Part shown: piece by piece, positions 26,344 to 45,194 of the stretch
Layout: each line of letters starts with the position of its first letter
Numbering within the stretch: position 1 is the stretch's first letter
Origin: Deltaproteobacteria bacterium
GTDB taxonomy: Bacteria > Desulfobacterota > Desulfobacteria > Desulfobacterales > SpSt-501
Direction of reading: 5' to 3'
Assembly: GCA_016219005.1 (NCBI GenBank)
Contig: JACRCN010000084.1
Coordinates: forward strand, 73,042-137,041
DNA length: 64,000 nucleotides
The notes under the pieces: model-generated
What the model was told of the DNA's origin: nothing
The model's input: only the letters and a program-made list of their open reading frames with translations
Database searches by the model: none
Translations under genes and position numbers: made by a program

Positions 26344-27185
26344 GAAGCTCCTTTCTCTTTACTCTTTCTGATGATGGTTCTTTCTGCTTCAGGAAGAGGA
26401 GGCGGAACAGGCTCGCCGGAAATCGTCTTCACCGCACCAAAGCGAGGGGGGCAGGCATCAAAGCAAGTTCCGCATTTTATGCATTTTTCCTGGTCAATTA
26501 CATGGATCCGGTTTTTGCCGCCCGCAATTGCCTCTACCGGGCATTTTTTAAGGCAAATCATACAGGCCTGGCACTTTTCCGGATCAATATGGTACGAGAT
26601 TACTTCACGAAATAACCGGTCTACCTCCTCACGGGTGAAAAGACCGTCATATTCTGCCTTGTTTTCAAGGCGTGACTCCAGCTTCTCCCTTTTAACTATC
26701 TTGATGTAGGGGGTGAGCTTTGCAACTTCTTGAATTTTAGACTTTAATTCATTTTTATCTATTCCTTCGCTTTTGCCAAGCGGTCCTAACTCCTTCACCT
26801 TTCGGCCAAAATCATTAATAACGTCGGCAAAGAGGATTCCTTCGCCGCCCGACATAAATTCAATCCTTAACCGTTCTGGGTTCAACCCTATGTGCTCCAA
26901 TATTTTTTTACCTAGAAGCACCATGTTAAGTGCATGATAATTTCCATGAGTAATATAATTGCATTCCTTTAAACGGCAACCACCAATAAACACCCCGTCC
27001 ATCCCATTTGAGAAAGCCCGGAGCACGAAGGACAGGTCGACTCTACCGGAACACATGACACGAACAAGCCTGATTTCAGGCGGATATTGCAGTCTGGAAA
27101 CTCCAGCCAGGTCAGCCGCGCCGTAGGCTCACCAATGGCATACAAAACCTATCATTTTGGGTCTGAATACAAGTCCTGCACTCAT
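26340..27185 (-). CDS. bamF: BamF-like MvhD-domain protein fused to a 2x[4Fe-4S] ferredoxin; predicted selenoprotein (in-frame TGA at 27129-27131)
   Basis: Reading from the ATG at 27185 (GGTGA ribosome-binding site upstream) gives 'MSAGLVFRPKMIGFVCHW-TGA-AYGAADLAGVSRLQYPPEIRLVRVMCSGRVD...', in frame with the 26340..27056 ORF. This matches the MvhD 'CxWC-SYxGAD' N-terminus with the second Cys replaced by TGA. C-terminal motifs are 'CQACMICLKKCP' and 'CIKCGTCFDACP'. Confidence 0.8.
27094..27106 (-). other. Hairpin downstream of the bamF-like TGA (bacterial SECIS candidate)
   Basis: On the minus-strand RNA, CUGGA-GUU-UCCAG starts 22 nt after the UGA. Only the core stem is reported; the extended structure was not resolved by eye. 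Confidence 0.35.
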
Positions 27186-27237
27186 TCGTTCTCACCTTCG
27201 TCTTTTAGAAATCCCGGGTTTATTCATGCGTATACTT

Positions 27238-30200: not shown

Positions 30201-30336
30201 CGGCAATGGCAAGATCGAGGGAGGCCTGAATACCGGAAATTCCTCCACCCACCACCATTACATCCCCAAAATTAGTATTCACAAGACCTTTACAAAACAG
30301 TTGAACTTTTTCTTCAAGCAACAGTTCTTTTTGCAC
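27238..30336 (-). CDS. bamE: BamE-like double HdrA-type flavoprotein/FeS protein (about 1030 codons); predicted selenoprotein (in-frame TGA at 30106-30108)
   Basis: I translated 30336 to 29676 by hand. It reads '...[16 protein letters not shown]...[33 protein letters not shown]...[12 protein letters not shown]...[11 protein letters not shown]...' with no other stop and runs into the 27238..29676 ORF in the same frame. There are two FAD GxGxxG sites, the HdrA motifs 'CSAVCC' and 'CSRICC', and a C-terminal 2x[4Fe-4S]. The GTG start has a GAGGTGA ribosome-binding site. Confidence 0.85.
30073..30090 (-). other. Hairpin downstream of the bamE-like TGA (bacterial SECIS candidate)
   Basis: On the minus-strand RNA, CUGGUC-GAGGUC-GGCCGG forms a 6-bp stem (including G-U pairs) starting 15 nt after the UGA. 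The loop contains GGUC, reminiscent of the E. coli fdhF SECIS apical loop. Confidence 0.45.
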
Positions 30337-30404
30337 TTCCGATCACCTCATCCAATATTTTAAGCCCGCAATGTCCGGGCTGGCCGGGGTTAACCGCACT
30401 GACT

Positions 30405-31556
30405 CTAAATAACTTCCTGTATGATCTCGGTGATGTCCTTAATTTCTATTTTATCGGCAACACCAATGGTTGACCTGCTATCCTCGAAATTGGCGATGCA
30501 ATAAGGGCAGGAAGTAACCAGCACCTCGGCTCCGACACCGATCGCCTGTTCCAACCTCAAATCGGAGAATCTTTCACCCTTTGGAGTTTCCATCCAAATC
30601 CGGCCGCCTCCCCCTCCGCAACAGAGGCTATCACTGCGCGATTCTGGCATCTCAATCAGTTCCAGACCAGGTACCTTCTTCAAGACCTCCCGGGGTTCGT
30701 CATATATGCCGTTGTGCCGACCCAGGTAACATGGGTCGTGATAAGTAACTTTCTTCCGATACGCCTTGTTAAGCTCAAGCCTTCCTGCATTCATGAGCTG
30801 GAATAAATATTGCGCGATATGAACCACCTCAAAGTCCACCCTAAATTCGGGATACTCGTTCTTGAAGCTATGGTAGCAATGAGGGGAAGAAACAAGGATT
30901 TTTTTCACCCCATTATCGATAAACGCTTTGATATTTTCCTTGGCCAAGCGTTTGAATAAATCCTCATCGCCGGTCTTGCGGATGCTCTCTCCGCAGCAAT
31001 TCTCCTTGGATCCCAGTATGCCGTAATGAACAGCCGCTCGGTTAAGAATAGTGGCGGTAGCCGCCGCCGCCTTTTTCAATCTTGGGTCATAGCTGGGGTA
31101 GCAGCAGGGGAAATATAATATTTCGGTGCCCTCGGCGAAGGTTTTTACAGAAAGACCTTCAGCCCAATTTGACCTATTATTGCGCTCTTCATTCAGAGGG
31201 TTACCGCGGCCACGGAGGCTCGCGCTCACGGTGCGGATAGGTCGAACCGGACCCGGGAAAACCCCGTATTCCGTGGCAAGCTTGCGTAAGGCTACCCCGG
31301 ATTCGATCTGTTTTACGTCCCGGGGGCATTGCTGAGGGCATCTTCCGCAGGTCGTACAACGCCAAATATCTTCACTTTCTATATCCGTCAAACCGAACGC
31401 AGCTTCGCGGACTATCTTGCGCATGCTGAAGATTCTAATCCTATTCCATGGGCAAACCACATCGCATAAGCCGCATTGAAAGCACGATTTGAAGGCTTCT
31501 CCACCTTTGGCTTTGATGGCATCTACGATCTCTTTAAAATCAGCTACATTCTCCAC
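30405..31556 (-). CDS. bamD: BamD-like HdrD-type FeS protein (2x[4Fe-4S] plus two CCG domains)
   Basis: 'CFQCGLCDVVCP', 'CTTCGRCPQQCP'; CCG-domain motifs 'PCCY', 'CCGES', 'DPCYLGR', 'CCGGGGG'. Confidence 0.8.
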   Translation of the reverse strand: MENVADFKEIVDAIKAKGGEAFKSCFQCGLCDVVCPWNRIRIFSMRKIVREAAFGLTDIESEDIWRCTTCGRCPQQCPRDVKQIESGVALRKLATEYGVFPGPVRPIRTVSASLRGRGNPLNEERNNRSNWAEGLSVKTFAEGTEILYFPCCYPSYDPRLKKAAAATATILNRAAVHYGILGSKENCCGESIRKTGDEDLFKRLAKENIKAFIDNGVKKILVSSPHCYHSFKNEYPEFRVDFEVVHIAQYLFQLMNAGRLELNKAYRKKVTYHDPCYLGRHNGIYDEPREVLKKVPGLELIEMPESRSDSLCCGGGGGRIWMETPKGERFSDLRLEQAIGVGAEVLVTSCPYCIANFEDSRSTIGVADKIEIKDITEIIQEVI

Positions 31557-31591
31557 GGTCGTTCTTAACCCTCTATTTTCGACGGATGGTT

Positions 31592-32140
31592 TTAGCCCTT
31601 CTTGGAGATTGACATCCGGGCGACGGTTTCCATTATCTTGTCAAGTCCAAATTTGTTTACCAACGATTCCAATCCTGTCTTCAACTCTTCTGCGTTCGCT
31701 TCTTCTTCTACTTCCTCTTCTCTTTCTTCGTAGATCAGGGCATCCGTTATGCACCACTGAACGCACAAGGGCTCTGATAAAGGCGGATCGCTTAAACACA
31801 TATCGCATTTTAGCGGCAGACCGGAATCGGGCTCCTTGAAAAGATCCCTGGATGGGCAGGAAGCCCTGCAGAAGGCACACTCTTCGTATTCCTTTCCGTC
31901 AATCGTGTACTTGTCTCGGCCCATGCATTCGGCTTTAGCATACTCACCCGCATATACAGGAACATATATGTCTTTTAACGGTTCATGAATAACACGAATA
32001 CGAGACCTCGCTGGATTGTTGCTGCTGTATTTCGGCGCAGCGTGGAAGGCGGAGCAGGCTAGCTCACATGCCCGGCAACCGTTGCATTTATCAACATCAA
32101 CTTTTATTGATTTAACAATTTTCTTTTTTTTCTCACCCAT
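31592..32140 (-). CDS. bamC: BamC-like polyferredoxin subunit
   Basis: 'CNGCRACELAC', 'CAFCRASCP', 'CDMC...CVQWC'. Size and position directly after the AOR-like gene fit. Confidence 0.75.
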   Translation of the reverse strand: MGEKKKKIVKSIKVDVDKCNGCRACELACSAFHAAPKYSSNNPARSRIRVIHEPLKDIYVPVYAGEYAKAECMGRDKYTIDGKEYEECAFCRASCPSRDLFKEPDSGLPLKCDMCLSDPPLSEPLCVQWCITDALIYEEREEEVEEEANAEELKTGLESLVNKFGLDKIMETVARMSISKKG

Positions 32141-32161
32141 GATAGTTAGCGCCTCTTCACT

Positions 32162-34165
32162 TTAATTCTCTCTGCTTCCGCTGAAGTCTTTGGCGGGCTC
32201 GTCTTGACTATCCGCCAAGATCCCCCGCTTAACAAAGTCTTCGATCACGTAATCCAAACCAAGATCATGCAAGGATTCCTTAGTAGGAATACCCTGATGA
32301 TTCCACCCCTTGAATTTGTAATACGCATCCAGGAGCTCTTTTTCAAGGTCGGGAAATCTTTTCTTCCAATGGTTCACTGGAGGCTTATCATCTTTTCTCC
32401 GCATGCCTCTTCTTATATTAATGGCCCTAACTAAAGTTCGGTACCTTTTGACTGCTTGCGTCAGTTTAGCTTCATCCATATCGATCCCGGCACCGGATGA
32501 GATAAATTGCGGGAAATTGTGCATATGATATGGAGGCTTCAGAGGAAATGATGACAAACCGGCGCACATCCCGAGGGCGTCATCGATATAGTGCATCCGC
32601 TCCTGCCAGTCGACAATGTTACAACTCATTTCAACCGTCGGATAATAGGGGATCGATTTTTCTCCGCGTGGTTCCCAGTCCAAGAAATATTGCTTAAACT
32701 TTTCATCAGGAACCTGGACCCAATCCTTTACAAACGCTTCTCTCTCTTCTCTGGTAGCAAAAGGCGCCTGGGGGAACTGGCCTTCGATTTGGGTAATGTT
32801 TATCTTCTCACCGGTGGAATACATAAGAAAATAAATTGGATTCAGCATGGATAGCTTGAGAGGCAGCTGCTCATGTTTTTTGATGTTATTATGAGCATAT
32901 GCTTCTGCGCCCTTACCAATCTGTTGGGCCGCCCAATAGGTGCCTTTGGCTAAAACATCCCCTATCCCTTCACGCCGAACAATTCTGTCAAGTAACCAAT
33001 AAAATTTCCCCTCGTTATCGGACGGCATTCCCGACATGTCATCGTCAGTTAAAATGGCGGCTTCGTAGAGCTCAAGGGCGAAGGCCATAACTTGCGGGGT
33101 TGAGTATGCGTCCACTCCATACTCCGTAGCACGTTGAGCGATTTTTAAGCCAAAATCCAAATCAGACATGGCCGCCATTGTATAAGTAAGTTTCGAGAAG
33201 CATTTCATCATGTAGGTTGGAAGCCCTGGGACGGAAAGGGTTGCCCCGCATTTCATCGGACAGTTATAGCAGCTGATTAGCCGCGTCCGCGCGCTTTCCA
33301 TGGTCCCCGTCCACTTCTTTTCGACTTCCTCGTTCCAAAAATCTTTTCTGCGAATGCGGGAATTTCCCCACATGAAATTCTCGGTATGCCACTTCTCATC
33401 ATGCACTTTCATCTCTTGCGGTGACCCCAGCCCAGCTAAAATGGGCATTACCCCCGGAATTGGGTTTTTTTCGCGGTGTTTTATGTATTTCAGCACTTCG
33501 TTGCAAAGCTCCATGAATGCATCCGGTCGGGCAATATGGACATCTTTTGTTCCACGAACGACTATGGCCTTTAACCCTTTGTCTCCCATTACGGCGCCTA
33601 TTCCGCCTCGGCTGGCGCTGGACCGGCCCTGCTCGATGGAAGCAAAATAAACCCTGTTTTCACCGGCCAAACCGATAGCCGCCACCTGGGCTTTCGGCTC
33701 CTTCAACTCCTGTCGGATGAGTTCCGCAGTTTCAACAGCGCCTTTACCCCGCAAATGCGAGGCGTCACGTAATTCTACCTTGTCGTTGTTTATCCACAGA
33801 TAAACCAGACTGGCGGACTTGCCGCGAAGGATCACTTTGTCGTAACCGGCATACTTCAATTCCGGTGCCCAAAATCCACCCATCATTGAAAATGCCATTA
33901 ACAACGTCTGAGGCGAAATGGTGGAAACAATGGTACGATTACAACCGGTAGCCGGTGTACCGCATAAAAGACCGGCGCTGAATATGAGTAGATTATCGGG
34001 AGAAAAAGGTTCAACTTCAGGAGGAACCCTGTCCCACAATATCTTGGCGTTAGTGCCTAGCCCCCCCAGATAAAGTTCGGTATCCCTTGGGTCGGTTGCG
34101 ACCCTCTCAATGTTTCCTCGGGATAGGTCAACTTCTAAATTAAACCCTGTCTCTGCGTACCTCAA
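32162..34165 (-). CDS. bamB: BamB-like tungsten/molybdopterin aldehyde:ferredoxin-oxidoreductase-family subunit (class II benzoyl-CoA reductase active-site subunit or close paralogue)
   Basis: The N-terminus 'MRYAETGFNLEVDLSRGNIERVATDPRDTELYLGGLGTNAKILWDRVPPEV' matches my recollection of Geobacter BamB closely. The AOR-family length is 667 aa. The TTG start at 34165 has a GGAGAAAG ribosome-binding site. Confidence 0.8.
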   Translation of the reverse strand: MRYAETGFNLEVDLSRGNIERVATDPRDTELYLGGLGTNAKILWDRVPPEVEPFSPDNLLIFSAGLLCGTPATGCNRTIVSTISPQTLLMAFSMMGGFWAPELKYAGYDKVILRGKSASLVYLWINNDKVELRDASHLRGKGAVETAELIRQELKEPKAQVAAIGLAGENRVYFASIEQGRSSASRGGIGAVMGDKGLKAIVVRGTKDVHIARPDAFMELCNEVLKYIKHREKNPIPGVMPILAGLGSPQEMKVHDEKWHTENFMWGNSRIRRKDFWNEEVEKKWTGTMESARTRLISCYNCPMKCGATLSVPGLPTYMMKCFSKLTYTMAAMSDLDFGLKIAQRATEYGVDAYSTPQVMAFALELYEAAILTDDDMSGMPSDNEGKFYWLLDRIVRREGIGDVLAKGTYWAAQQIGKGAEAYAHNNIKKHEQLPLKLSMLNPIYFLMYSTGEKINITQIEGQFPQAPFATREEREAFVKDWVQVPDEKFKQYFLDWEPRGEKSIPYYPTVEMSCNIVDWQERMHYIDDALGMCAGLSSFPLKPPYHMHNFPQFISSGAGIDMDEAKLTQAVKRYRTLVRAINIRRGMRRKDDKPPVNHWKKRFPDLEKELLDAYYKFKGWNHQGIPTKESLHDLGLDYVIEDFVKRGILADSQDEPAKDFSGSREN

Positions 34166-34290
34166 TTCTTTCTCCTTCTATATTACCTGAATTCGTGGCA
34201 TGCTTTTTGGCCAATCATGATGGAGCCGATTTGTTTATGATTTTACTGACGATCCGCGTCGGCCCGGAGGTCAGGGCGGAGCGTTTTCAG

Positions 34291-34329
34291 CTATAAATTA
34301 ACTATAAAATAGCTATATTGTATTTATAG
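34291..34329. promoter_or_regulatory. AT-rich nested palindrome / operator-like element at the predicted bamB transcription start
   Basis: Outer arms are CTATAAA (34291-34297) and TTTATAG (34323-34329). The central perfect palindrome is ATAGCTAT (34309-34316). Confidence 0.35.
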
Positions 34330-34351
34330 GAGGTTCCTCGGATTTTGTCAA
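34323..34351 (-). promoter_or_regulatory. Sigma-70-type promoter candidate for the bamB-like operon
   Basis: On the minus strand: TTGACA (34351-34346), a 17-nt spacer, then TATAAA (34328-34323). It lies about 150 nt upstream of the bamB-like start. Confidence 0.5.
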
Positions 34352-34618: not shown

Positions 34619-34960
34619 CTATTTGGCCCGGCTGCGGGCATAGGTCAGCCCGCCGGTCACCTCGATCGTGGTCGCGTTGATGGCATCGTTTTCGATGCAG
34701 TGCATGATGCTGGCCGCGATCTCCTCGGGTTCCACCAGTCTTCCGCTGTGGACGTCCTTCAGGATGGCCGCGAGCGCTTCCGGGTTCATGCCTCTCAGGA
34801 TCGCCGTGTTGACATAGCCCGGCGCGATCGCCACCACCCGGATGTTGCGGATCTTGCGGATCACGAACTCGCCCACCAGGATCTTCGGCATCAGGGCCAC
34901 GGCCGCCTTGGTGGCGCTGTAGTTGAGCTGGCCGACCTGGCCCTCCTTGTTGATGGAGGA
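34619..34960 (-). pseudogene. 3' remnant of a short-chain dehydrogenase/reductase (SDR) gene
   Basis: The open frame '..SSINKEGQVGQLNYSATKAAVALMPKIL...IRVVAIAPGYVNT...' contains the SDR YxxxK catalytic motif and the C-terminal half only. An in-frame TGA at 34961-34963 stops it, and no Rossmann TGxxxGxG region lies upstream. The fragment is high-GC, unlike its surroundings. Confidence 0.65.
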
Positions 34961-34986: not shown

Positions 34987-35024
34987 AAAAAAGGGGAGAG
35001 CAGGTCTTATTTCCGCTCTCCCCC
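34987..35024 (-). terminator. Rho-independent terminator ending the TRAP/CoA-transferase operon
   Basis: On the minus strand: GGGGAGAGC, a 13-nt loop, GCTCTCCCC, then TTTTTT (the A-run at 34987-34992 on plus). Confidence 0.75.
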
Positions 35025-35081
35025 GGGTTCCAAAACATGACAGGGATGTTCACCATGGCAGCAATTACTCTGATCTATTTT

Positions 35082-35216
35082 TCATTTGTGCTTTTGGATC
35101 AGCTCGATATACACCCCGTTCAGCTCTCTTTGTTCGATCACCGCAATCTTTGTACCTCTCGACCCATCGACGATCTTGCCCCATACGAATTCCATGTGAA
35201 AGGATTCAGCGGCCAT
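35082..35216 (-). pseudogene. Possible 3' remnant of a methylmalonyl-CoA-epimerase/VOC-family gene
   Basis: The tail 'FHMEFVWGKIVDGSRGTKIAVIEQRELNGVYIELIQKHK' resembles VOC/epimerase C-termini ('..G.KIAF.....GV.IEL..'). The upstream part of the frame overlaps dctM and is not VOC-like. Confidence 0.3.
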
Positions 35217-36531
35217 ACATGCTGGCCGGTATGACGGTTGAAATCCACGGGAAAGCAAAGAGAATGGCAATGCCGAAAGCCTCGAAGAGCAAAAACCAGA
35301 AACAACCCCTGAAGATCTCGTGCATGGGTACATCCCGGACGACACCGGCTAAGACATAGACATTGAGCCCCACCGGCGGCGTCATCAGCCCGACTTCAGC
35401 CATCTTGACGCACAGGACCCCGAACCAGATGGGATCGTAACCCAGCTGGGTGGTGACGATCGGAAACATGATGGGTTGGGTGATGATGAGCATTGAGAAA
35501 GTATCCATGAACATTCCCAGGGGTATATAGACGATCAAGAAACCCGTCACGATCATCCAGGGCGATACCGGCAGACCGCCCACCCAACCCGATATGACTT
35601 GGGGAACCTGGGCCAGGGTAAGAAACTTGGCGTAGAGTCCGGCGCCGATCAGGATCATGAAAACCATGCAGCTCGTGCGGAGGGTGTCGAAGAAACAGAG
35701 CTTGATGTTTCCCCCCATCATCCCCTTCTCCACTCGCCCCCCGAACAGCATCATCAGCAACGCGACAAAAGCGCCCACGGAAGCGGCTTCGGTAGGGGTG
35801 AACCAGCCGATGTACATGCCCCCGATCACCAGGAAGAACAAAAGGGCCATTCCCCAAACCCCTTTGAGGGAAGCAAACCGCTCCCGCCAGGTGTAGTTCT
35901 CCGGCGCGGGACACAGGTTGGGATAGATCCGGGTCAGGAAGAAAAGCCCAATGACGTAAACAAATACGCTCAACACCCCGGGCAGGATCCCGGCGATGAG
36001 TTGCGCGCCGGCCGAGACATCGTTGATCGATGCATAAAAAACGGAGACAACGCTCGGCGGGATCAGAATGGCCAGGGTCCCGGAAGCGGCCACGATGCCG
36101 CAGGCCAGTTTCCGATCGTACCCCAAGGCTCGCATTTCGGGGATGGCAATCGCCCCCATGGTAGCGGCGGAGGCAACGCTCGATCCGCAGCAGGCGCCAA
36201 ATCCCGCCGAAGCGATGAAGGTGGCGATGCCGAGCCCGCCCGGGAGTTTGGAAAACCACTTCCGGCCGATGGTGTAAAGATCGCTGCTGATGCCGGCTTT
36301 GAATCCGAAATGCCCCATAATGATAAAAAGCGGCACCACGGCTAAGAGGTAATTGGCCGTATTCGCGTAAGGAGAGACCTTCAATACGGTCAGGGCATAG
36401 TAGGGGCCTTTCAAGGCAAGGATACCCAGAACACCAGTGATACCCAGAGAGGCATAAATCGGCATCCCCATCCACATCAGAGCCAGCACCAAAAAGACGC
36501 TGAGAATAGACGCAGTTCCGGGTTCGATCAT
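35206..36531 (-). CDS. dctM: TRAP transporter large permease (DctM family)
   Basis: A polytopic membrane protein of typical DctM sequence. The start was moved to the ATG at 36531, preceded by GGAGG. Confidence 0.88.
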   Translation of the reverse strand: MIEPGTASILSVFLVLALMWMGMPIYASLGITGVLGILALKGPYYALTVLKVSPYANTANYLLAVVPLFIIMGHFGFKAGISSDLYTIGRKWFSKLPGGLGIATFIASAGFGACCGSSVASAATMGAIAIPEMRALGYDRKLACGIVAASGTLAILIPPSVVSVFYASINDVSAGAQLIAGILPGVLSVFVYVIGLFFLTRIYPNLCPAPENYTWRERFASLKGVWGMALLFFLVIGGMYIGWFTPTEAASVGAFVALLMMLFGGRVEKGMMGGNIKLCFFDTLRTSCMVFMILIGAGLYAKFLTLAQVPQVISGWVGGLPVSPWMIVTGFLIVYIPLGMFMDTFSMLIITQPIMFPIVTTQLGYDPIWFGVLCVKMAEVGLMTPPVGLNVYVLAGVVRDVPMHEIFRGCFWFLLFEAFGIAILFAFPWISTVIPASMYGR

Positions 36532-36593
36532 CTTATTCCCTCCATAAACAGTCAGATGTTGGACCAATCATCTCGAACCGATAGGGATACCGC

Positions 36594-37124
36594 TCAATCA
36601 CCGATCTGACGCAGGTCGGGCAGATCGAGAGGTAATGCCCCCATGAGCCGGCGGAAGTTCACCCAAATGTCGACCACCAACTGGAGGCAGGTCAGCCAGC
36701 ACCCCAGGGGGACGAGAGCTTTGGCCCACCAGATCTGCATTTGCACCGAACCCCAGCGGAATTCGTTGATTTCATAAGACCGAAGAGCTTCCCTGGCGCT
36801 TTGCCATCCCATGACAGCCAGAAAAATAAAACAGAGGACCCAGCAGAGCGTATCCAGTTTGATCGCGCTGCGGATTGAAAACCTTCTCAGCCCCAGGACA
36901 ACCCGCGTGTGTCCTCTGGCCTCTTGGGTCCAGCTGAGGGTCATAAACACGGCGATGACCAACAGTACCTCATTGAACTCGAAGACCCCGGCAATAGGAT
37001 AATTGAAAACGTAACGACTGGTAGTATCCAGGGTGGTGCTTATCATCATCATGGCGATCGCGGCCGCAGCAATGAAGCTGAAGAATATATTGATTTTATT
37101 GAGCCAGCGCGCAAGGTTCTCCAT
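36594..37124 (-). CDS. dctQ: TRAP transporter small permease (DctQ family)
   Basis: A 4-TM protein of about 176 aa between the dctP-like and dctM-like genes. Confidence 0.8.
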   Translation of the reverse strand: MENLARWLNKINIFFSFIAAAAIAMMMISTTLDTTSRYVFNYPIAGVFEFNEVLLVIAVFMTLSWTQEARGHTRVVLGLRRFSIRSAIKLDTLCWVLCFIFLAVMGWQSAREALRSYEINEFRWGSVQMQIWWAKALVPLGCWLTCLQLVVDIWVNFRRLMGALPLDLPDLRQIGD

Positions 37125-37204
37125 CTCGCAATATACCTCCCCTTGGGAAGGCAGCCGGAACGAATTAGGACATCCGCCCGGCTACCTTCATAGCACCATC
37201 GTTT

Positions 37205-38338
37205 TTACTTTTTTTCGTACTTCGCCTGATAGATTTCATAGGGATTTTTGAGCTTGCCCTGCGGCTCATACTTGGCGATGAGGCTGCGTGCTTTATCGAT
37301 GAATTCGACCCCATTGTACTTCGCTGGCTTGGCGACCTTTTCGGCCCAGTCGTTCACCTGCGCCGGCTGCACCATGCTGGTGGCCTTTTTGATCTCTTCA
37401 TCCGACCACTTTGTGAATTTGGCACCGTTCTTGACCATGACATCGAGGCTTTCTTCCAGAAGCTTGTTGTACAACTCGACATACTTGTATTTGTAAACGT
37501 CATCCGCGGTTTTTTTAAATACATCCTTCAGGTCGTCGGGCAGGGAATTCCACACGTCCAGGCCCATGACCACCGTGGTGGGCGCATGGGCCCCGGCGCC
37601 GACTTCGATAATGTTGGGAGCCTGCTCATAGAGCTTCGCTTTTTCGGCCGTGACAAAGCAAAACGCGAAGACTCCGTCGAGAATCCCGCGCTCCAACGAC
37701 TGATAGACTTCCGCGGCCACCACGGGCATTCCCCTTCCTCCCAGGCGGTCGATGGTTTCAGCACCAATTCCGTAGCCTCGGATTCTCATCCCCTTGAGTT
37801 CGGAGACTTGAGTGAGGGGCTTTTTGGAAAAAAGCGGGCAATAATCCCAGTTGGTGAAATACAGGACTTTGCAGCCGTTTCTTTTTTCCCACTCATCCTT
37901 CAGAGGGGGATAGGTATCGTACATTTCCTGGCAGACCTTCAGCAGGGTGTCGGCGTGGTTGCAGCCCATGAAGTACCACTCCAATCCTCGGCTGAGCGGC
38001 ACCTGGGCAGGATAATAGCCGTAAGAAATCAGGGATAATTCTGAAAGCCCGTCCCTGACCGCCTGCAAATGTTCTCCCACTTTGTGAAGGGAGGATGCCC
38101 AATATTTTTCGATTTTGATCCGGCCGCCGGATCGTTCCACCACTGTGTCGAGATACCAGTTGTCAAGCTGGGCCGGGGCCGCTGACGCTTGGATGTAGCA
38201 GTCGTACTTCATGGTAATGACTTTGCCCGACTGCGGTGCGGCGTGCAAGATGCCCCGGGCCGGGCCCATGAGGAGTCCCCCCATGGCGGCTGCAGCGGTT
38301 GATTTCAGAAATGTCCTTCGATCCATTCCCTTGCCCAT
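37205..38338 (-). CDS. dctP: TRAP transporter substrate-binding protein (DctP family)
   Basis: Twin-arginine-like signal 'MDRRTFLKSTAAAAMGG' and DctP-like length and sequence. Confidence 0.85.
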   Translation of the reverse strand: MGKGMDRRTFLKSTAAAAMGGLLMGPARGILHAAPQSGKVITMKYDCYIQASAAPAQLDNWYLDTVVERSGGRIKIEKYWASSLHKVGEHLQAVRDGLSELSLISYGYYPAQVPLSRGLEWYFMGCNHADTLLKVCQEMYDTYPPLKDEWEKRNGCKVLYFTNWDYCPLFSKKPLTQVSELKGMRIRGYGIGAETIDRLGGRGMPVVAAEVYQSLERGILDGVFAFCFVTAEKAKLYEQAPNIIEVGAGAHAPTTVVMGLDVWNSLPDDLKDVFKKTADDVYKYKYVELYNKLLEESLDVMVKNGAKFTKWSDEEIKKATSMVQPAQVNDWAEKVAKPAKYNGVEFIDKARSLIAKYEPQGKLKNPYEIYQAKYEKK

Positions 38339-38397
38339 GTTTCATTCCTCCTTCCTTGGGTTAAAGGCTCAGTGAAGCCCAGTCCAATTTCCCGAAA

Positions 38398-38811
38398 TCA
38401 GGGTTTAAAAACCAAAGAGGTCTGCCGCGCATGCCCCTCCCCCTTGGAAGCAAAATCAGCTTGGAGCGGCATTCCCACCCGGATCTGATCGGGGTTCCTT
38501 GCATCCACGCCTGTGATCCGCGACACGGCCTTGACACCTTCGTCCAATTCCACCACACCGACAACGTATGGATTGTTCCGGCCGAAGCCTTCCCGGGCCA
38601 TCGCCGGCGGGGCCACCACGATGCTGGTGAAGCCCGCCAGCTTGCCCTTACCTTTCAATTCCACCCATTCCAGATCGCTGCCATGGCACGAAACGCAGAT
38701 GGGTCGTGGCGGCAGCGCGAGTGCGCTGCACTTTTTACAGCGCGAGCCCATGATCCGGCGGTCGTTGAGATACTGCTCGTAGGAGGCGTCATTAAAAGGC
38801 CTTTTCTCCAT
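38398..38811 (-). CDS. Zn-ribbon/OB-fold protein (DUF35 family), thiolase partner
   Basis: 'CKKCSALALPPRPICVSC' zinc ribbon followed by an OB fold. The ATG at 38811 has a GGAGAGGAGG ribosome-binding site. It directly follows the thiolase-like gene. Confidence 0.8.
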   Translation of the reverse strand: MEKRPFNDASYEQYLNDRRIMGSRCKKCSALALPPRPICVSCHGSDLEWVELKGKGKLAGFTSIVVAPPAMAREGFGRNNPYVVGVVELDEGVKAVSRITGVDARNPDQIRVGMPLQADFASKGEGHARQTSLVFKP

Positions 38812-38815
38812 GATG

Positions 38816-40081
38816 TTACCTCCTCTCCAGAATGGTGAAGGTGCAGGTCCCGCCGGTTCCCCCGAGGTTATGCGCCGCGCCGATGCGCAGGTTGGGGTTG
38901 GGGACCTGTCTATTGCCGGCCTGGCCCCGCAACTGGGTCCAGACCTCGTAGAGTTGGGCAACCCCTGTTGCACCCACGGGATGGCCTTTCGATTTGAGGC
39001 CTCCTGAAGTATTGATGGGCCTGGGGCCGTCGAGGCGGGTCATCCCGTCGGCCACGGCTCTGTGGGCTTGCCCCGGTTTAACAAAACCCAGATCCTCCAT
39101 GGTCACGAGTTCGGCGATGGAGAAGCAGTCGTGGACCTCTGAAAACTGTATGTCGTTCGGGGTCAGGCCGGACATTTCATAGGCCGCGTTGCCTGCCGCA
39201 CGGGTGGCCTCATAGCTTGTGAGATCTTTTTTGGCATGGAGGCTGTAACCGCTGCCCTGGCCCAATCCGGCCACGTGGATCGGCACATCCGTGAAGTTGC
39301 GAGCCATGTCTTCGGCTACCAGGAGCATGCAGGCCGCTCCGTCGCTGATGGGACAGCAGTCAAAGAGATGCATGGGCCAGGCTACCGGCGGGTTCGCCGC
39401 AGGGTCCGCAAGATAGGCCTTCTCGTCCTTCCAGGCGGGGACGGGCTCTGCCTTTTTCTTGGACCTTTCGATCCGGGCGTTCATGAAATCCCGGACGGTC
39501 ATTGGAAACTGGGCCTTGGGGTTAAGCGGGGCGTTATTGTGGCTTTTGATGGTCACGTTAAAAAGCGCTTCCCGGGTGGCCCCGTACTTGGCGAAATAGG
39601 CGGTCGCCATCGTCCCGAAAACCCCGGGGAAGGTGAATCCCGCCGCCACTTCGTACGGACTCGCCGCCATCGCTAATCCCTCGGCCACTTCTTCGGTCGA
39701 ACATTTTGACATCTGCTCGAAGCCGCCTACCAGCACGATGTCATACATTCCCGAGGCGATGGCCAGCACCCCTTCCCGGAACGCCAGGGCGCTGGACGCG
39801 CAGGCGCCTTCCGTGCGGGTGACGGGCTTGGGCACGTTCCCCAGCAGATCGGCTATGATCGGGGCCCAGTGGGATTGTTTCACAAAAAAATCATTGGTAA
39901 AGTTTCCGACATAGACCGCATCGATATCTTTCGGGTCGATGCCCTTGTCCACGGAGTTGACCATTTCCGTGTAGGCTTCGGCAAAGAAATCCTTGCAGTT
40001 GCGGTCTTTGAAAAGGCCCAACTTGGTCAGTCCGCCGCCGACAACCGCAACTCCCCGGGCCAACTTTCGTTTTCTTGCCAT
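38816..40081 (-). CDS. Thiolase-superfamily protein (SCP-x/BbsB-like non-canonical thiolase)
   Basis: 'RGVAVVGGGLTKLG', active-site 'EGACASSALAF', C-terminal 'HNLGGTGG'. The start was moved to the ATG at 40081, preceded by AGGAGG. Confidence 0.85.
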   Translation of the reverse strand: MARKRKLARGVAVVGGGLTKLGLFKDRNCKDFFAEAYTEMVNSVDKGIDPKDIDAVYVGNFTNDFFVKQSHWAPIIADLLGNVPKPVTRTEGACASSALAFREGVLAIASGMYDIVLVGGFEQMSKCSTEEVAEGLAMAASPYEVAAGFTFPGVFGTMATAYFAKYGATREALFNVTIKSHNNAPLNPKAQFPMTVRDFMNARIERSKKKAEPVPAWKDEKAYLADPAANPPVAWPMHLFDCCPISDGAACMLLVAEDMARNFTDVPIHVAGLGQGSGYSLHAKKDLTSYEATRAAGNAAYEMSGLTPNDIQFSEVHDCFSIAELVTMEDLGFVKPGQAHRAVADGMTRLDGPRPINTSGGLKSKGHPVGATGVAQLYEVWTQLRGQAGNRQVPNPNLRIGAAHNLGGTGGTCTFTILERR

Positions 40082-40156
40082 CGGCTCCTCCTTAACTGCA
40101 CTATGAAAATGCCATGTGGAAGATAATAAGAGTGCTCGCAACTGTTTCCGGTCGGC

Positions 40157-40936
40157 TCATCCCTTGCGGATAATATATCCATCCGGATCAACCTCTTTCC
40201 GAAGGACGTCAAGTTCTTTTTCGGTCGGAGGCGGGGTCGCGACAATATTCTTGGCCTTGAGCAGGGGGAACCCACAATTTTTCTGCACATCCTCGAAGGT
40301 GAAGCCGTGGTGGATGGATTCCACCTGCATGCGCTTGGTCTCCTCATCGTACCCCAGAATGGCCATGTTGGTAATCACTTTATGGGGGCCGCTCTCTTCC
40401 GGCAAACCGGCTTTCTCGCGTGCTCCCGGCCCGTCCAGATAGCCAGGGGAGGTGATGAAGCTGACCTTCTCGACGAAACGCCGGGCATCCTGCGGAGTGA
40501 TCACCAGAATCCTCCAGCAGAAGGAGGCAAAATCGTTGGCACCTCCTGATCCGGGCAGGCGCGCTTTAGGCTTTTCCCAATCCCCGATAACCGTGGAGTT
40601 GAGATTGCCATACATGTCGATTTGGGCCCCCCCGAGAAATGTGTAATCCACCATTCCCCGCTGGCAGCTCTCCATGATATCGCACATGCCGCTGGCCATG
40701 ACACTCCTGTAATAGGACCGAGAGTCTCCCACGGATATGGGCATTTTGCAGAGCACGGGAGCGATTCCCCCGGCCTCAAACATGATGACGAGATCCGGGG
40801 CATGCATCTTATGGGCAAGCATCGAGGCGGCCAGTGGCGCCCCCGTGCCAACCCCTACGGTGGCTCCGTTTTCCAGAATGCGGGAAGCCGCTATCACCAT
40901 CAGTTCCATCGTATTGAATTCAGGCATGGCATTCAC
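40157..40936 (-). CDS. Family I CoA-transferase subunit B (glutaconate CoA-transferase beta-like)
   Basis: 'VGVGTGAPLAA', 'FEAGGI', 'GGAQIDMYGN'. It overlaps the subunit A stop. Confidence 0.8.
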   Translation of the reverse strand: MNAMPEFNTMELMVIAASRILENGATVGVGTGAPLAASMLAHKMHAPDLVIMFEAGGIAPVLCKMPISVGDSRSYYRSVMASGMCDIMESCQRGMVDYTFLGGAQIDMYGNLNSTVIGDWEKPKARLPGSGGANDFASFCWRILVITPQDARRFVEKVSFITSPGYLDGPGAREKAGLPEESGPHKVITNMAILGYDEETKRMQVESIHHGFTFEDVQKNCGFPLLKAKNIVATPPPTEKELDVLRKEVDPDGYIIRKG

Positions 40937-41933
40937 TCCTTTTTGTTCTCAAATCGATCATGTGCTCTTCGGCACGGAGTTGATTGATACGTTTGATGCC
41001 GCCGCAGAGTTCCAGGTACCCCTCGAAGTCCTGCACTCCATAGATGTATTGATCCATGAACTTTTTGAAAGACGCAGGCTCCTTCTCGCTTTCCAACCAG
41101 AGCTTTAGTTGCTCTTCGTCGGAAAAGTACTCATCCACCATGTTTCCCGGGTAGGCGCCGAAGGGGACTTCGCAAACGGCATCGACCAGGAAGTAAGGAA
41201 TCTGGGTGGCTGACGGATCGCGACGGATCTCATCGTTGTGGATCAACCGTTCGCAGGTGATGATCAGCCGCTTGGAAGCCCGGGCCAATTCCAAATCGCA
41301 GACCGATATTCCCTTGAATCGGGCGTTGCCGTAAATGTCCGCCTCGTGAACGTGGATGACCGACACGTCCGGCCATACGGCCGGGTACAGGCAGTAAAGC
41401 TTTCCGGTAAATGGGCACCGGGCGACCTTGGCGGCGCTTCGTTTGAACGTATCCGTCCCCATGACATTGCGCCCCGGAAGGTACGACACGCCCATCGCTG
41501 CCGCCTTCAACCGGAGGGCCAGGGCGTAATTGGTCCATTCACAGAACTGCACCTTTCCGCTCTCGGAGTAACGGCGGGCATTGGGGGAGAGCCCGCGAAT
41601 CTCAACGCCGATGATGTAGGCGATGTCGCAGCGATTGAAGGTTTCTCCCGCAGCCAGAATCTGGTAATCGTGGGTGGAGGTGTGGCCGAAGAAAGCCAGA
41701 TTTTTTCTTCTTTGCCGGACGATTTCGTGGCACGCAGCCACCGGCGTACGGTTGGCGCCGAATCCGCCGATGCACAGATAATCTCCGTCATGAACGAATT
41801 GGGCGATGGCGTCTTTCAGGGGTATCACCTTGTTAGCAAGGGCTCTCTTTTTCTTACGGAAGAATGCTCGCGCCTTGTCAGCGTCCGGGTCCATGAAAAG
41901 AGGCCCTTCACCTTGAGCGATGACTTCATACAT
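40920..41933 (-). CDS. Family I CoA-transferase subunit A (glutaconate CoA-transferase alpha-like)
   Basis: A 337-aa protein with 'GDYLCIGGFG', paired with subunit B. An AAGGAGG ribosome-binding site lies upstream. Confidence 0.8.
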   Translation of the reverse strand: MYEVIAQGEGPLFMDPDADKARAFFRKKKRALANKVIPLKDAIAQFVHDGDYLCIGGFGANRTPVAACHEIVRQRRKNLAFFGHTSTHDYQILAAGETFNRCDIAYIIGVEIRGLSPNARRYSESGKVQFCEWTNYALALRLKAAAMGVSYLPGRNVMGTDTFKRSAAKVARCPFTGKLYCLYPAVWPDVSVIHVHEADIYGNARFKGISVCDLELARASKRLIITCERLIHNDEIRRDPSATQIPYFLVDAVCEVPFGAYPGNMVDEYFSDEEQLKLWLESEKEPASFKKFMDQYIYGVQDFEGYLELCGGIKRINQLRAEEHMIDLRTKRSECHA

Positions 41934-42132
41934 AAAAAAACCTCCTTTGTTGATGTTGCCAGCGGGTGGACAATAGGATCGCTTTTTTTCGGGGTGCCGG
42001 GAGCGGCTGGGTGCGGGGCATCATCTTGGCAGTTGCTCCTTGCTCAGCAGGAGGAGATATCCGCAGTTCGGTCTGCTTCGGACCGTCTTGCCCCTTGCAG
42101 GAGCCAAGGGGGATGGTTAAACCGGTCACTGG

Positions 42133-42148
42133 AGCAATTGGCGTGCCA
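42133..42148 (-). promoter_or_regulatory. Sigma-54 (-24/-12) promoter for the CoA-transferase/thiolase/TRAP operon
   Basis: The minus strand reads TTGGCACGCCAATTGCT, a near-perfect match to YTGGCACGrNNNTTGCW, about 200 nt upstream of the CoA-transferase A start. Confidence 0.75.
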
Positions 42149-42212
42149 ATCCCATGGAAATCATGGCCGTAACAAAACGAGATGAATTATCAATACATTT
42201 CCGCATTCGAAA

Positions 42213-42227
42213 GGTTTTCCGAAAACC
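42213..42227. promoter_or_regulatory. Inverted repeat GGTTTTC-C-GAAAACC upstream of the sigma-54 promoter
   Basis: Perfect 7-bp arms read directly, about 70 nt upstream of the -24 element. Confidence 0.35.
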
Positions 42228-42253
42228 GAAGGGTGCTAAAAAATGCATGGGGG

Positions 42254-42290
42254 TTTTGCAGGCTTGCGAAACATTCGCAGGTTTGCAAAA
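42254..42290. promoter_or_regulatory. Candidate enhancer (UAS) palindrome for the adjacent sigma-54 activator
   Basis: TTTTGCAGGCTTGCGAA-ACA-TTCGCAGGTTTGCAAAA has a perfect core TGCGAA-ACA-TTCGCA and matching outer TTTTGCA/TGCAAAA arms. It lies about 110-140 nt upstream of the -24 element. Confidence 0.45.
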
Positions 42291-42331
42291 AAACGTCCGG
42301 GGGAAAAACAACGCTGCGGAAAGGAACCGGG

Positions 42332-43708
42332 TCACTTGGAAAGGGCGTGCTGCTTCAACTTTCGGTAAAGGGTCGCCGGGTGAACCTGGGCAAAATGGGA
42401 GGCGTCTTCAAAATTTCTGGAAAACTTGCGCAAAAGATTTTCTAGATATTTCCTTTCGAAGATCTCCTTGGCCTTCTCGTAGGATAAATCCATGAAGTCG
42501 CATTCTTCATCCGAGCGCAGAATGGTGAGATGCTCTTGGATGTCTATTTCGGTAATGACATCCGCCCCGTGCAGGGCCACAATTCTCTCGATCACGTTCT
42601 GAAGTTCTCTCACGTTGCCTGGCCAATCATGGTTCATCAGGACTTGCAGGGCTTTGGGATCAAAGGTCTTTTTGCCCTTATTCATGCGGGAACAATAATT
42701 TTCTACAAAATGGTCGGTGAGCAGGGCAATGTCATCCCGCCGGTCTTTGAGCAGGGGAAGATCGATTTTAATCACATTGATCCGGTAAAACAGGTCCTTG
42801 CGGAACCGCCGCTTGACCACCTCCTCCTTGAGATCTTTATTGGTGGCCATAATCATGCGCACATCCATTGGATAGGACTTCGTTCCTCCCACCCGGACCA
42901 CTTCTCTTTCCTGCAGGGCCCGGAGCAGGCGGATCTGCAGGGAAGAGCTGGCCTCGCCAATTTCGTCCAGGAAGAGAGTCCCCCCGTCAGCCTCCTCGAA
43001 ATATCCCTTGGTGGTCTTCGTTGCCCCGGTGAAGGCTCCCCTTTCATAACCGAAAAGTGTGGATTCTAGAAGACTTTCAGGCAAGGCCCCGCAATTAACA
43101 GTTAGGAATCCATATTTTTTACGTCCGCTGTTTGAGTGAATGGCTCGGGCCACCAATTCTTTGCCTGTGCCGCTCTCACCCTGTATGAGAACATTGCTTT
43201 CAACTTCGGAGGCCTTTTTGATGAACTCGAAAACTCTCTTCATACCGGCGCTTCGGCCGATGATTTGCGGGAACAGGCCTTCCGTCTTGATCTGTTGCCT
43301 GAGCGAAAGGTTTTCTTTTTCGAGTTGCCCCTGGTAGATCGCGTTTTTGATCGTGATCAGCACCTTGCCGGTCTCTTCAAAAGGCTTCATTAAAAAATCG
43401 AAAGCCCCCAGTCTCATGGCACGGACCGCATCCTCCACGGTCCCGTATGCGGTTATCATGATGACCGGCATCAAAGGGTTCATTTCGCGGATTTGTTTGA
43501 GAATGTCGATCCCGTTTGCATCTGGAAGGCGGATATCGAGGATTACCAAAGAATAGGAGGCTTGTTGAAGGGCTTGCATCCCCTCGACGCCGCTGTCCAC
43601 TGTATGTATGTGAGCGACGGTTTTTTCAAGGAGCTTCCGGAAGAATTCCCGGGCAAAAGGTTCGTCGTCGATGACAAGGACTTTTTCTTCATTGCTATTG
43701 GTGCTCAA
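42332..43708 (-). CDS. Sigma-54-dependent response regulator (NtrC family: receiver, AAA+, Fis-type HTH)
   Basis: 'LVILDIRLPDANG', 'GESGTGKELVARAIH', 'GAFTGA', and a C-terminal HTH 'ATLYRKLKQH'. Confidence 0.92.
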   Translation of the reverse strand: MSTNSNEEKVLVIDDEPFAREFFRKLLEKTVAHIHTVDSGVEGMQALQQASYSLVILDIRLPDANGIDILKQIREMNPLMPVIMITAYGTVEDAVRAMRLGAFDFLMKPFEETGKVLITIKNAIYQGQLEKENLSLRQQIKTEGLFPQIIGRSAGMKRVFEFIKKASEVESNVLIQGESGTGKELVARAIHSNSGRKKYGFLTVNCGALPESLLESTLFGYERGAFTGATKTTKGYFEEADGGTLFLDEIGEASSSLQIRLLRALQEREVVRVGGTKSYPMDVRMIMATNKDLKEEVVKRRFRKDLFYRINVIKIDLPLLKDRRDDIALLTDHFVENYCSRMNKGKKTFDPKALQVLMNHDWPGNVRELQNVIERIVALHGADVITEIDIQEHLTILRSDEECDFMDLSYEKAKEIFERKYLENLLRKFSRNFEDASHFAQVHPATLYRKLKQHALSK

Positions 43709-45194
43709 GGCAACTCCTCAGGGGCAGAACGACTGCGAAAGTGGTGCCCTTTCCCGCTTTGCTTTCCGCTTTCAAATGCCCATCGTGGTTTTTGATGATC
43801 TGATATGCAAAACTCAATCCAAGCCCATGCCGTCCCGGATTATTACCCACTGTGAAAAAGGGCAGGAAAATCTTATTCAGATATTCCTTCGGAATTCCCC
43901 GACCCGTATCAGAAAAAAGAATCTGCAATTCATTTTTTTTCTCATTCATTGCGGTTGCAACCCGCAACTGCCCTCCTTTGGGCAGCATCGCCTGAGCCGC
44001 GTTGGTGAGAATGTTCAGGAATGATTGCTTCAGTTGGATGCCATCCCCGGAGATCAGCGGGACTTTTGTATCGAAATTCACGTTTATGCGGATGGTGCCA
44101 AGCTTATCGCCGAACTGTTCCTTAAGCGTGCGGATGGAATCCCTCAAGACGTCGTGGATATCCGTCTGGGTAAACGTGAGGTGGGGATCCTTAAAACAGT
44201 TGAGCACGCTGGTTATGATCTTGAGGCATTCCTTGCCGGCACGGTGGATCGTTCGTGCCATTTCTTTCTTGGTATCCTCCTCGTCCATCTGGCGCAGGAG
44301 CATCTCTGAAAAATTAACCACCCCGATGAGCGGGTTGTTCAACTGGTGGGCAATTCCACCCATCAACTCGGAATAAAGGGCCAGTTTTTCGGTCAGAAAA
44401 AGCCTCTCTTCCAGGGCTTTCTGCTCGGTCAGGTCGCTCAGCAGCATCATTTTGGCGATCTTCCGGCCGGCGGCATTTTCAACCTCCGAAGCCAGCATTG
44501 AAGCCGGGAACAGGTTCCCGTCTTTCTTGATGCATAAGACCTCGGGTCGAAACGCCTGGCCCTCCTTTCCCGAGAAAAACATGGGTTCCTTGAACAAACG
44601 ATCAACCTTCTTTTTGAGCAACTCCCGCCTGCGGTAGCCGAAAATCCTCTCTGCCGTGCGGTTGAAGATCAGAATTTTGCCTTCCAAATCGGTGCTGATC
44701 ACAATGTTGGGGGAGGATTCTATTATGGACTTGAGGAATTTTTCGGACACCTGCAACTCGTCTGTCCGGGCTTCGACAAGCCGTTTTTCATAATAGAGTT
44801 CCTTTTCGAGCTCGTTGATCAGAATGAAATACCGGCCTGACGAAAAACGGGCTCCCCGGGCACGATAGGTCATCTGCTCGGGGTTGTATTGAGGGATATA
44901 CCGGTCAATGACGAAATTGAAAGGGGTCCCTTTTTTCAATAGATTGGCGTAGTGCTTTTTCAATCCCTGTTCCATCGTTTTGGGGAAAGTTTCGGCAAAG
45001 GTTTTCCCCAGGATATTTTTACGGGGTATCCGTGAGGTCTCCTCCTGCTTCCTGTTCATCCTCAAGACCCTTCCATCCTGATCCAGGATCATGAGACCGA
45101 TGGGCAGGTTTTCAATCAAGTCTTCGACGAAGCTCATCTTTCTGGAAGTGAGTGGTTTATAGGGCCTCATGCATTTCCCCTTTGCTATACGCAT
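43695..45194 (-). CDS. PAS-domain sensor histidine kinase (cytoplasmic)
   Basis: Two PAS-like regions, H-box 'AHQLNNPL', 'NAAQAM', 'GHGLGLS'. It overlaps the regulator start. Its own start is uncertain (45194, 45170 or 45137). Confidence 0.88.
   Translation of the reverse strand: MRIAKGKCMRPYKPLTSRKMSFVEDLIENLPIGLMILDQDGRVLRMNRKQEETSRIPRKNILGKTFAETFPKTMEQGLKKHYANLLKKGTPFNFVIDRYIPQYNPEQMTYRARGARFSSGRYFILINELEKELYYEKRLVEARTDELQVSEKFLKSIIESSPNIVISTDLEGKILIFNRTAERIFGYRRRELLKKKVDRLFKEPMFFSGKEGQAFRPEVLCIKKDGNLFPASMLASEVENAAGRKIAKMMLLSDLTEQKALEERLFLTEKLALYSELMGGIAHQLNNPLIGVVNFSEMLLRQMDEEDTKKEMARTIHRAGKECLKIITSVLNCFKDPHLTFTQTDIHDVLRDSIRTLKEQFGDKLGTIRINVNFDTKVPLISGDGIQLKQSFLNILTNAAQAMLPKGGQLRVATAMNEKKNELQILFSDTGRGIPKEYLNKIFLPFFTVGNNPGRHGLGLSFAYQIIKNHDGHLKAESKAGKGTTFAVVLPLRSCLEHQ

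Follow-up and report, generated by a model that had tools for sequence, protein, structure and literature searches.

Which regulator and which class of promoter control the transcription of a catabolic operon of seven genes from an uncultured anaerobe of the Deltaproteobacteria? The question is raised by a stretch of 64,000 nt (contig JACRCN010000084.1 of assembly GCA_016219005.1, referred to below as the window) in which genes of a two-component system stand next to an operon that begins with a CoA-transferase. We propose that the response regulator acts through a four-box enhancer on a sigma-54 promoter that drives all seven genes and so switches on the uptake and breakdown of an organic acid, and we give this reading a probability of about 0.78. 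The evidence is presented below together with the alternatives that have to be weighed against it.

Gene order and domain architecture

All genes from 49879 down to 35206 lie on the minus strand, in the order PutA, NAD kinase, sensor kinase, response regulator and CoA-transferase operon. The kinase gene (43695 to 45194, minus strand) codes for a sensor histidine kinase in which Pfam detects two PAS domains, HisKA and HATPase_c; Met1, Met9 and Met20 are candidate start codons. The protein has no N-terminal region like the membrane and HAMP part of AtoS, and it appears to be soluble. The start of the regulator gene (42332 to 43708, minus strand) overlaps the 3' end of the kinase gene by 14 nt. 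Its product is an NtrC-family response regulator, i.e. a sigma-54 activator (Pfam Sigma54_activat with 3.6e-69, Response_reg and AAA_lid_14), with a REC domain, an AAA+ domain containing GAFTGA and Walker A, and a C-terminal Fis-type HTH. A preliminary description of this DNA had the two regulatory genes arranged divergently, but the open reading frame map and the Pfam assignments place them directly upstream of the operon, in the same direction and on the same minus strand. Between the stop codon of the regulator (42332) and the start codon of the CoA-transferase (41933) there are 398 bp. A scan found no terminator between the regulator gene and the operon, so that some read-through transcription is possible.

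The operon itself (35206 to 41933, minus strand; genes assigned by Pfam and NCBIfam) begins with GctAB-like CoA-transferase subunits A (41933 to 40920) and B (40936 to 40157), continues with an SCP-x-type thiolase (40141 to 38816) and a DUF35 OB-fold protein (38973 to 38398), and ends with the TRAP transporter genes DctP (38338 to 37205), DctQ (37124 to 36594) and DctM (36567 to 35206). The best solved relative of the A subunit is GctA (1POI, 1.3e-39). 5mzw and 6co6 are also among its solved relatives; we take them to be AibA and IpdA, non-transferase enzymes of the same fold, and CoA transfer should therefore not be assumed. In 68 out of 78 orthologous ctA-ctB loci (L005-L081) no thiolase, DUF35 or TRAP genes follow; judged by this gene content, the seven-gene operon of the window is a clade-specific mosaic. 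Downstream of dctM, the sequence GGGGAGAGC, a 13-nt loop, GCTCTCCCC and a T7 run were read by eye as a likely intrinsic terminator (34987 to 35026, minus strand). The hairpin has a strong, GC-rich stem of 9 bp, and it escaped our pattern scan, which does not accept loops longer than 8 nt. This hairpin with its T7 run at 35026-34987 probably ends the operon.

The sigma-54 promoter

The 17-mer TTGGCACGCCAATTGCT (42149-42133, minus strand) matches TGGCACG-N4-TTGCW exactly. Its -24 GG (42147-42146) and its -12 GC (42135-42134) have the canonical GG-N10-GC spacing, and this spacing predicts a transcription start near 42122. A near-consensus sigma-54 motif had been reported before at 42148-42133, and TGGCACGCCAATTGCT, read there on the minus strand, indeed carries GG and GC 10 nt apart within the TGGCAC-N5-TTGCW consensus. 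The motif thus stands, but the 17-mer begins one base earlier, at 42149. The sole mismatch to the longer consensus used in that description is a C at the 'r' position.

TGGCACG-N4-TTGCW occurs once in the window, even when one mismatch is allowed. In the genome (5.24 Mb, 60% GC) there are two exact matches where about 1.5 are expected from base composition, i.e. a bare match to the consensus is not rare at genome scale, and the significance of the site rests on its context and its conservation. A position weight matrix, whose weights are our own approximation from the published consensus, ranks the promoter second among approximately 10.5 million genome positions. The number of sites with such a high score to be expected by chance is about 0.5 for the whole genome and 1.9e-5 for this strand of the intergenic region. 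The approximate matrix is able to discriminate, since its best sites cluster near activator genes: 35% of the top 60 lie within 3 kb of one, vs 5.3% expected. The genome scan proposed in the preliminary description places the site among the best matches. The genome also codes for RpoN (Sigma54_DBD, 210.9 bits, in an open frame of 524 aa, C78:78125-78598). It has about 46 sigma-54 activator genes, which makes cross-activation possible.

The match could nevertheless be fortuitous, in which case read-through, or a sigma-70 promoter that has escaped recognition, would account for the transcription of the operon. The roughly 0.5 equally high-scoring sites expected somewhere in the genome, as well as the lack of a detectable terminator behind the regulator gene, are compatible with this explanation. 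The expectation for this very position and strand speaks against it, as does the persistence of the motif in practically every orthologous locus, in spite of the strong divergence of the surrounding sequence. A search of 41800-42500 for a sigma-70-like promoter found none. We consider a chance match extremely unlikely; on the comparisons made here, the sigma-54 promoter at 42149-42133 is genuine, but of an ordinary kind.

Other high-scoring sigma-54 motifs are found beside activator genes of the same genome, and there are many of them (e.g. C40:12189, C64:33151, C6:43402-46724 and C85:18398/18546). The top-scoring site of the genome is C64:47158-47174 (TTGGCATGACGCTTGCT).

The four-box element

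Upstream of the promoter lies an inverted repeat of 37 bp (42254 to 42290, with no strand assigned) that can be written as TTGCA-N4-TGCGAA-N3-TTCGCA-N4-TGCAA. Its conservation suggests that it is the upstream activating sequence, i.e. the enhancer, of the promoter. Its midpoint, 42272, lies at about -150 relative to the predicted start. The palindrome, with its perfect core TGCGAA-ACA-TTCGCA, is present just as it was first described; its 17-nt arms are complementary at 14 out of 17 positions (82%) and are separated by 3 nt.

The element has no second copy in the genome, whether one looks for the core TGCGAA-N3-TTCGCA, for the full pattern or for the relaxed four-box consensus; for the relaxed consensus the next best match reaches 17 out of 22. 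This uniqueness predicts a regulon of a single operon. Among public genomes, with one genome taken per species, the full 18-base pattern has 26 matches. Three of these are orthologous loci, and each has an activator gene as well as a sigma-54 motif at a distance of 122-125 bp. The other 23, which serve as a negative control, have neither an activator gene nor a sigma-54 promoter nearby, and must therefore be chance matches or unrelated hairpins; for the same reason we rejected the pattern as a finder of new regulon members. As far as we could check, the consensus TTGYA-N4-TGCRAA-N3-TTYGCA-N4-TGCRA has apparently not been described in the literature before.

The element is flanked by a 20-nt direct repeat of 75% identity (42234-42253, TGCTAAAAAATGCATGGGGG, and 42284-42303, TGCAAAAAAACGTCCGGGGG), the second copy of which overlaps the outer box.

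Conservation in orthologous loci

Related loci were sought in public genomes, with the CoA-transferase A protein and the regulator as queries, and in metagenomes, with the regulator as query. About 30 loci were found in which an orthologue of the regulator (67-94% identity) adjoins an orthologue of the kinase, and these loci retain together the kinase-regulator pair, the four-box element and, downstream of it, a TGGCAY-N5-TTGCW promoter. An alignment of the intergenic regions of the window and of its relatives L002, L003 and L004 shows three conserved blocks, i.e. the -24/-12 element, the palindrome with its outer TGCA arms, and the AT-rich segment. The consensus TTGYA-N4-TGCRAA-N3-TTYGCA-N4-TGCRA is matched at 19 or more of its 22 positions in 22 out of 29 non-redundant orthologous regions, a count that has to be read with the reservation that the relaxed consensus was refined after some of the test sequences had been seen, and that the loci are phylogenetically related, so that their number overstates their independence. 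The same number of regions, 22 out of 29, beat all of 300 dinucleotide shuffles, the maxima of which were 16-19. In two regions below the threshold (L215 and L217) the boxes are visibly kept, with one extra base at the centre. A further 28 metagenome orthologues were compared with a consensus derived beforehand, and most of them reach at least 18 out of 22, with the promoter at about 124 or 114-115 bp.

The distance between the element and the promoter is conserved as well. From the centre of the enhancer to the -24 GG there are 126, 125, 123, 122, 124 and 115 bp in the six loci derived from genomes. In the metagenome set the distance is mostly 124 bp, and a second class has 114-115 bp, which is one helical turn less; across all orthologues the values are 122-127 bp or 114-115 bp. 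The 37-bp palindrome, already proposed as an upstream site in the preliminary description, is thus the best enhancer candidate, at a fixed and helically phased distance from the promoter in about 30 orthologous loci.

These observations also bear on another reading of the palindrome, namely that it works chiefly at the RNA level, where it would form a hairpin that stabilises or weakly terminates the kinase-regulator transcript at its 3' end, and is not a DNA enhancer. Its position would suit such a role, as it starts 42 nt past the stop codon of the regulator, an imperfect hairpin can form, and no other terminator was found there. However, no U-tract follows the stem, and the terminator scan is empty on the minus strand. 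In addition, it is the sequences of the boxes and their 8-11-8 spacing that are conserved while the N4 and N3 positions vary freely, and an RNA element would not need a promoter distance held at about 124 bp or one helical turn less. The hairpin reading is therefore very unlikely in our judgement, and we retain that of a DNA enhancer.

The orthologous loci fall into two operon types. In most relatives (L084, L085 and L201-L225) the operon begins with an SDR gene and a gene for an AMP-forming acyl-CoA ligase, while in the clade of the window it begins with the GctAB-like CoA-transferase A and B; both types continue into thiolase and TRAP genes. L084 and L085 are instructive examples. Here the kinase-regulator pair precedes the SDR and acyl-CoA ligase genes instead of CoA-transferase A/B, and the intergenic regions, which are AT-rich and otherwise unalignable with that of the window, keep four TGC-type boxes with 8-11-8 spacing, an AT-rich CAATAAATTA and TGGCAT-N5-TTGCT. 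As far as gene order and intergenic sequence can tell, the activation module is exchanged here with the regulatory cassette left intact. A possible SDR remnant at 34619-34960 in the window was considered as a relic of the SDR gene of the sister operon and was rejected, since an identity of 23% indicates family-level similarity only.

It may be asked whether the adjoining regulator is the one that uses the promoter. A different activator could drive a real sigma-54 promoter, with the four boxes binding another protein and the regulator acting elsewhere. The genome, with its many activator genes, offers alternative candidates. Moreover, four ctA-ctB loci of other deltaproteobacterial genomes (L008, L010, L011 and L026) carry the sigma-54 motif TGGCAT(T/A)TTTATTGCT 119-131 nt upstream of ctA, and no activator gene was found upstream within the flank that was fetched. 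Against this explanation, the regulator gene, the element and the promoter occur together in about 30 loci and with two operon types, and the genome has no second copy of the element on which the regulator could act. The recognition helix VHPATLYRK is also kept beside the element in nearly all regulator orthologues, single substitutions being found in three metagenome loci. We regard a different activator as improbable. The earlier suggestion of a promoter that drives the CoA-transferase operon under the adjoining NtrC-family regulator and PAS kinase agrees with the joint conservation of regulator, enhancer and promoter. The motif at the four further ctA loci does indicate that sigma-54 control of this CoA-transferase may extend beyond the cassette.

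Sequence between the four-box element and the promoter

A second palindrome, GGTTTTC-C-GAAAACC, is read at 42213-42227 (about -98; no strand assigned), in agreement with the preliminary description. Its proposed role as another upstream site did not hold up, since L002 has a degraded version of the palindrome, L003 has lost it, and in L004 it is deleted; it is not conserved even where the encoded proteins are about 90% identical to those of the window. We rejected it as a second operator, and it is probably non-functional.

The AT-rich element ATTATCAATACATTT (42186 to 42200, plus strand) is the remaining conserved block of the four-locus alignment. Part of it, TATCAATACATTT (42188-42200, antisense to transcription and centred at about -72), agrees with the IHF core consensus WATCAANNNNTTR at 8 out of 9 positions. 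The best IHF match of each locus does not exceed the shuffles in any locus (P 0.09-1.0). When the consensus is scored by position across 27 loci, peaks are found at -58 in the sense direction (z 4.0, at least 7 out of 9 in 16 out of 27 loci) and at -71 in the antisense direction (z 3.2), and both operon types have a 'TTGAA/TTGAT' word near -70, in a constant register. Ten genes of the HU/IHF family were found in the genome, none of them above the himA cut-off. The earlier suggestion of an IHF-like, DNA-bending stretch thus stands as to the presence of the sequence and its positional enrichment across orthologues, but not as to a single-locus match better than shuffled sequence. A site for a bending protein at this stretch is plausible but weakly supported.

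Comparison with known systems

The general features of the locus can be compared with those of three sigma-54-dependent systems. At the level of architecture, though not of orthology, the closest characterised analogue is AtoSC-atoDAEB of E. coli. Firstly, the genes follow the same order, kinase, regulator, CoA-transferase alpha and beta and onward, all in the same direction (atoS-atoC-atoD-atoA-atoE-atoB in E. coli). Secondly, the regulators share the REC-AAA+-HTH layout of the NtrC family, and AtoC and AtoS are the top NCBIfam matches of the pair in the window. Thirdly, both operons join a family I CoA-transferase, a thiolase and a carboxylate transporter. In addition, the atoDAEB promoter reads TGGCAC-N5-TTGCT, and upstream of it TGCA and TGCG boxes are combined into a composite palindrome of 41 bp that has its centre at about -128. 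This palindrome, TGCA-N6-TGCACA-g-TGCGCA-N6-TGCA, is an experimentally verified AtoC site (PMC3118216). Its layout is like that of the window element, while the sequence and the spacing of the boxes differ, the start-to-start distances being 8-11-8 in the window and 10-7-10 in E. coli.

The differences are substantial in other respects as well. The regulator scores 403.9 bits against a cut-off of 714 for NF008469, with AtoC barely ahead of NtrC, and the kinase scores 230.1 bits against 646 for NF008468; since both are well below the equivalog cut-offs, the pair in the window are not orthologues of AtoC and AtoS. The regulator is 44% identical to AtoC over REC and AAA+ only. Its DNA-binding domain is unmatched, and the recognition helix is HPATLYRKL in the window regulator as opposed to SRRALMYKL in AtoC. 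The kinase is 30% identical to AtoS over PAS-HisKA-HATPase only, and the N-terminal region of AtoS has no counterpart in it. The enzymes are also of other kinds, i.e. GctAB-like proteins, an SCP-x/archaeal-type thiolase with a DUF35 partner and a TRAP transporter, rather than AtoDA, AtoB and AtoE; the A subunit is GctA-like and only weakly 3-oxoacid-transferase-like.

BamV and BamW are a histidine kinase and a sigma-54-type response regulator. The locus resembles this system in that a kinase and a sigma-54-type regulator are found near benzoyl-CoA pathway genes in an anaerobic deltaproteobacterium. Together, BamVW are described as the two-component system that controls anaerobic benzoate degradation in Geobacter metallireducens (PMC4424350, PMC11497800). 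The preliminary description drew the analogy with this system. The analogy is apt as far as it concerns a kinase plus a sigma-54 regulator near anaerobic aromatic genes, but as the closest match it has to give way to AtoSC-atoDAEB, which fits better in gene order, in the functions of the target genes and in the architecture of the enhancer.

A stronger version of the analogy would make the pair BamVW orthologues that sense benzoate-type aromatics and control a benzoyl-CoA regulon, with the CoA-transferase operon feeding the neighbouring Bam-like reductase. An operon like that of class II benzoyl-CoA reductase does lie just downstream (25891-34351), and the role of BamVW in Geobacter metallireducens (PMC4424350) would fit with it. 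Several observations oppose this version. The target in the window is an operon of CoA-transferase, thiolase and TRAP genes, not bam genes. The four-box element, being unique in the genome, has no copy at the Bam-like operon, which argues against a direct control of bam genes. A likely terminator separates the CoA-transferase operon from the Bam-like operon, and in related loci the cassette goes with thiolase and TRAP genes. We judge that the pair is unlikely to represent BamVW orthologues.

At promoters of the NtrC/DctD type such as glnAp2 and dctA, a GAFTGA activator acts on a -24/-12 element from a dyad enhancer at a distance of over 100 bp on the upstream side, in some cases with the help of an IHF-type bend. 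The locus shares with them a dyad enhancer at such a distance, the -24/-12 promoter and the GAFTGA activator, and it differs in that its enhancer consists of four boxes and has a consensus of its own, TTGYA-N4-TGCRAA-N3-TTYGCA-N4-TGCRA.

Proposed mechanism

Under the preferred reading, in which the regulator acts through the four-box enhancer, the following sequence of events can be envisaged. The soluble PAS kinase would sense an intracellular cue, most likely the organic acid that the TRAP transporter of the operon takes up, or a metabolite close to this acid, and would phosphorylate the response regulator. The regulator would then oligomerise on the four TGC-type boxes at about -150. The DNA would loop, possibly with the help of an IHF/HU-type protein, so that the GAFTGA loops could reach the sigma-54 RNA polymerase, which would sit as a closed complex at TGGCACG-N4-TTGCT. 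ATP hydrolysis would open this complex, and the polymerase would then transcribe all seven genes, starting at about 42122 and stopping at the likely terminator near 34990. We base the nature of the cue on two considerations, namely that the same cassette is found with a CoA ligase or with a CoA-transferase, and that the kinase is apparently soluble; both point to the sensing of an imported free acid or a close metabolite, although this prediction is speculative.

A wider interpretation can be offered tentatively. The pair may belong to a family of AtoSC-like two-component systems of the Thermodesulfobacteriota that has not been described so far, is defined by the four-box enhancer, has a regulon of a single operon and travels as a self-contained cassette (kinase, regulator, enhancer, bend site and sigma-54 promoter) next to which the activation genes are exchanged. 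We think this possible but rather doubtful. If it were true, the signal for the soluble PAS kinase would be the free acid that the TRAP transporter brings in, rather than a CoA thioester. One could think of a 3-oxo acid or a 3-hydroxy acid, the thiolysis products of which would feed the adjacent benzoyl-CoA pathway.

For the seven-gene catabolic operon of this uncultured anaerobe, the analysis provides a regulatory annotation that consists of a promoter class, a predicted start, an enhancer consensus and a likely regulator. It also provides a testable motif for a small family of regulators, TTGYA-N4-TGCRAA-N3-TTYGCA-N4-TGCRA at about 124 bp upstream of the -24 element. An intact cassette with swapped activation enzymes would be a tidy case of modular operon evolution, and once the inducer is identified the cassette could serve as a ligand-responsive sigma-54 switch. 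The general understanding of sigma-54 regulation is left unchanged by this locus.

The predicted 5' leader

The predicted start leaves a 5' leader of about 189 nt (41934 to 42122, minus strand) that ends in an AAGGAGG ribosome-binding site (41947-41941). Among the orthologues the length of the leader ranges from 18 to 190 nt. The folding energy gives no support to a structured leader, being no better than that of shuffled sequences (z 0.04). An Rfam search of both strands of 41800-42400 found no known riboswitch, the only match being a meaningless one below the threshold, and outside L002 and L003 no similarity was found between the leader and the sequence upstream of ctA.

Inside the leader there is an upstream open reading frame of 32 codons (MMPRTQPLPAPRKKAILLSTRWQHQQRRFFYV, 42024 to 41926, minus strand) that has no well-placed ribosome-binding site. 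It is open without indels in the window, L002 and L003, and is absent from L004. The conserved C-terminal part of this frame coincides with the conserved ribosome-binding region of ctA, so that its conservation may be at the nucleotide level. The TGA stop codon of the frame overlaps the start codon of the CoA-transferase (ATGTATGA).
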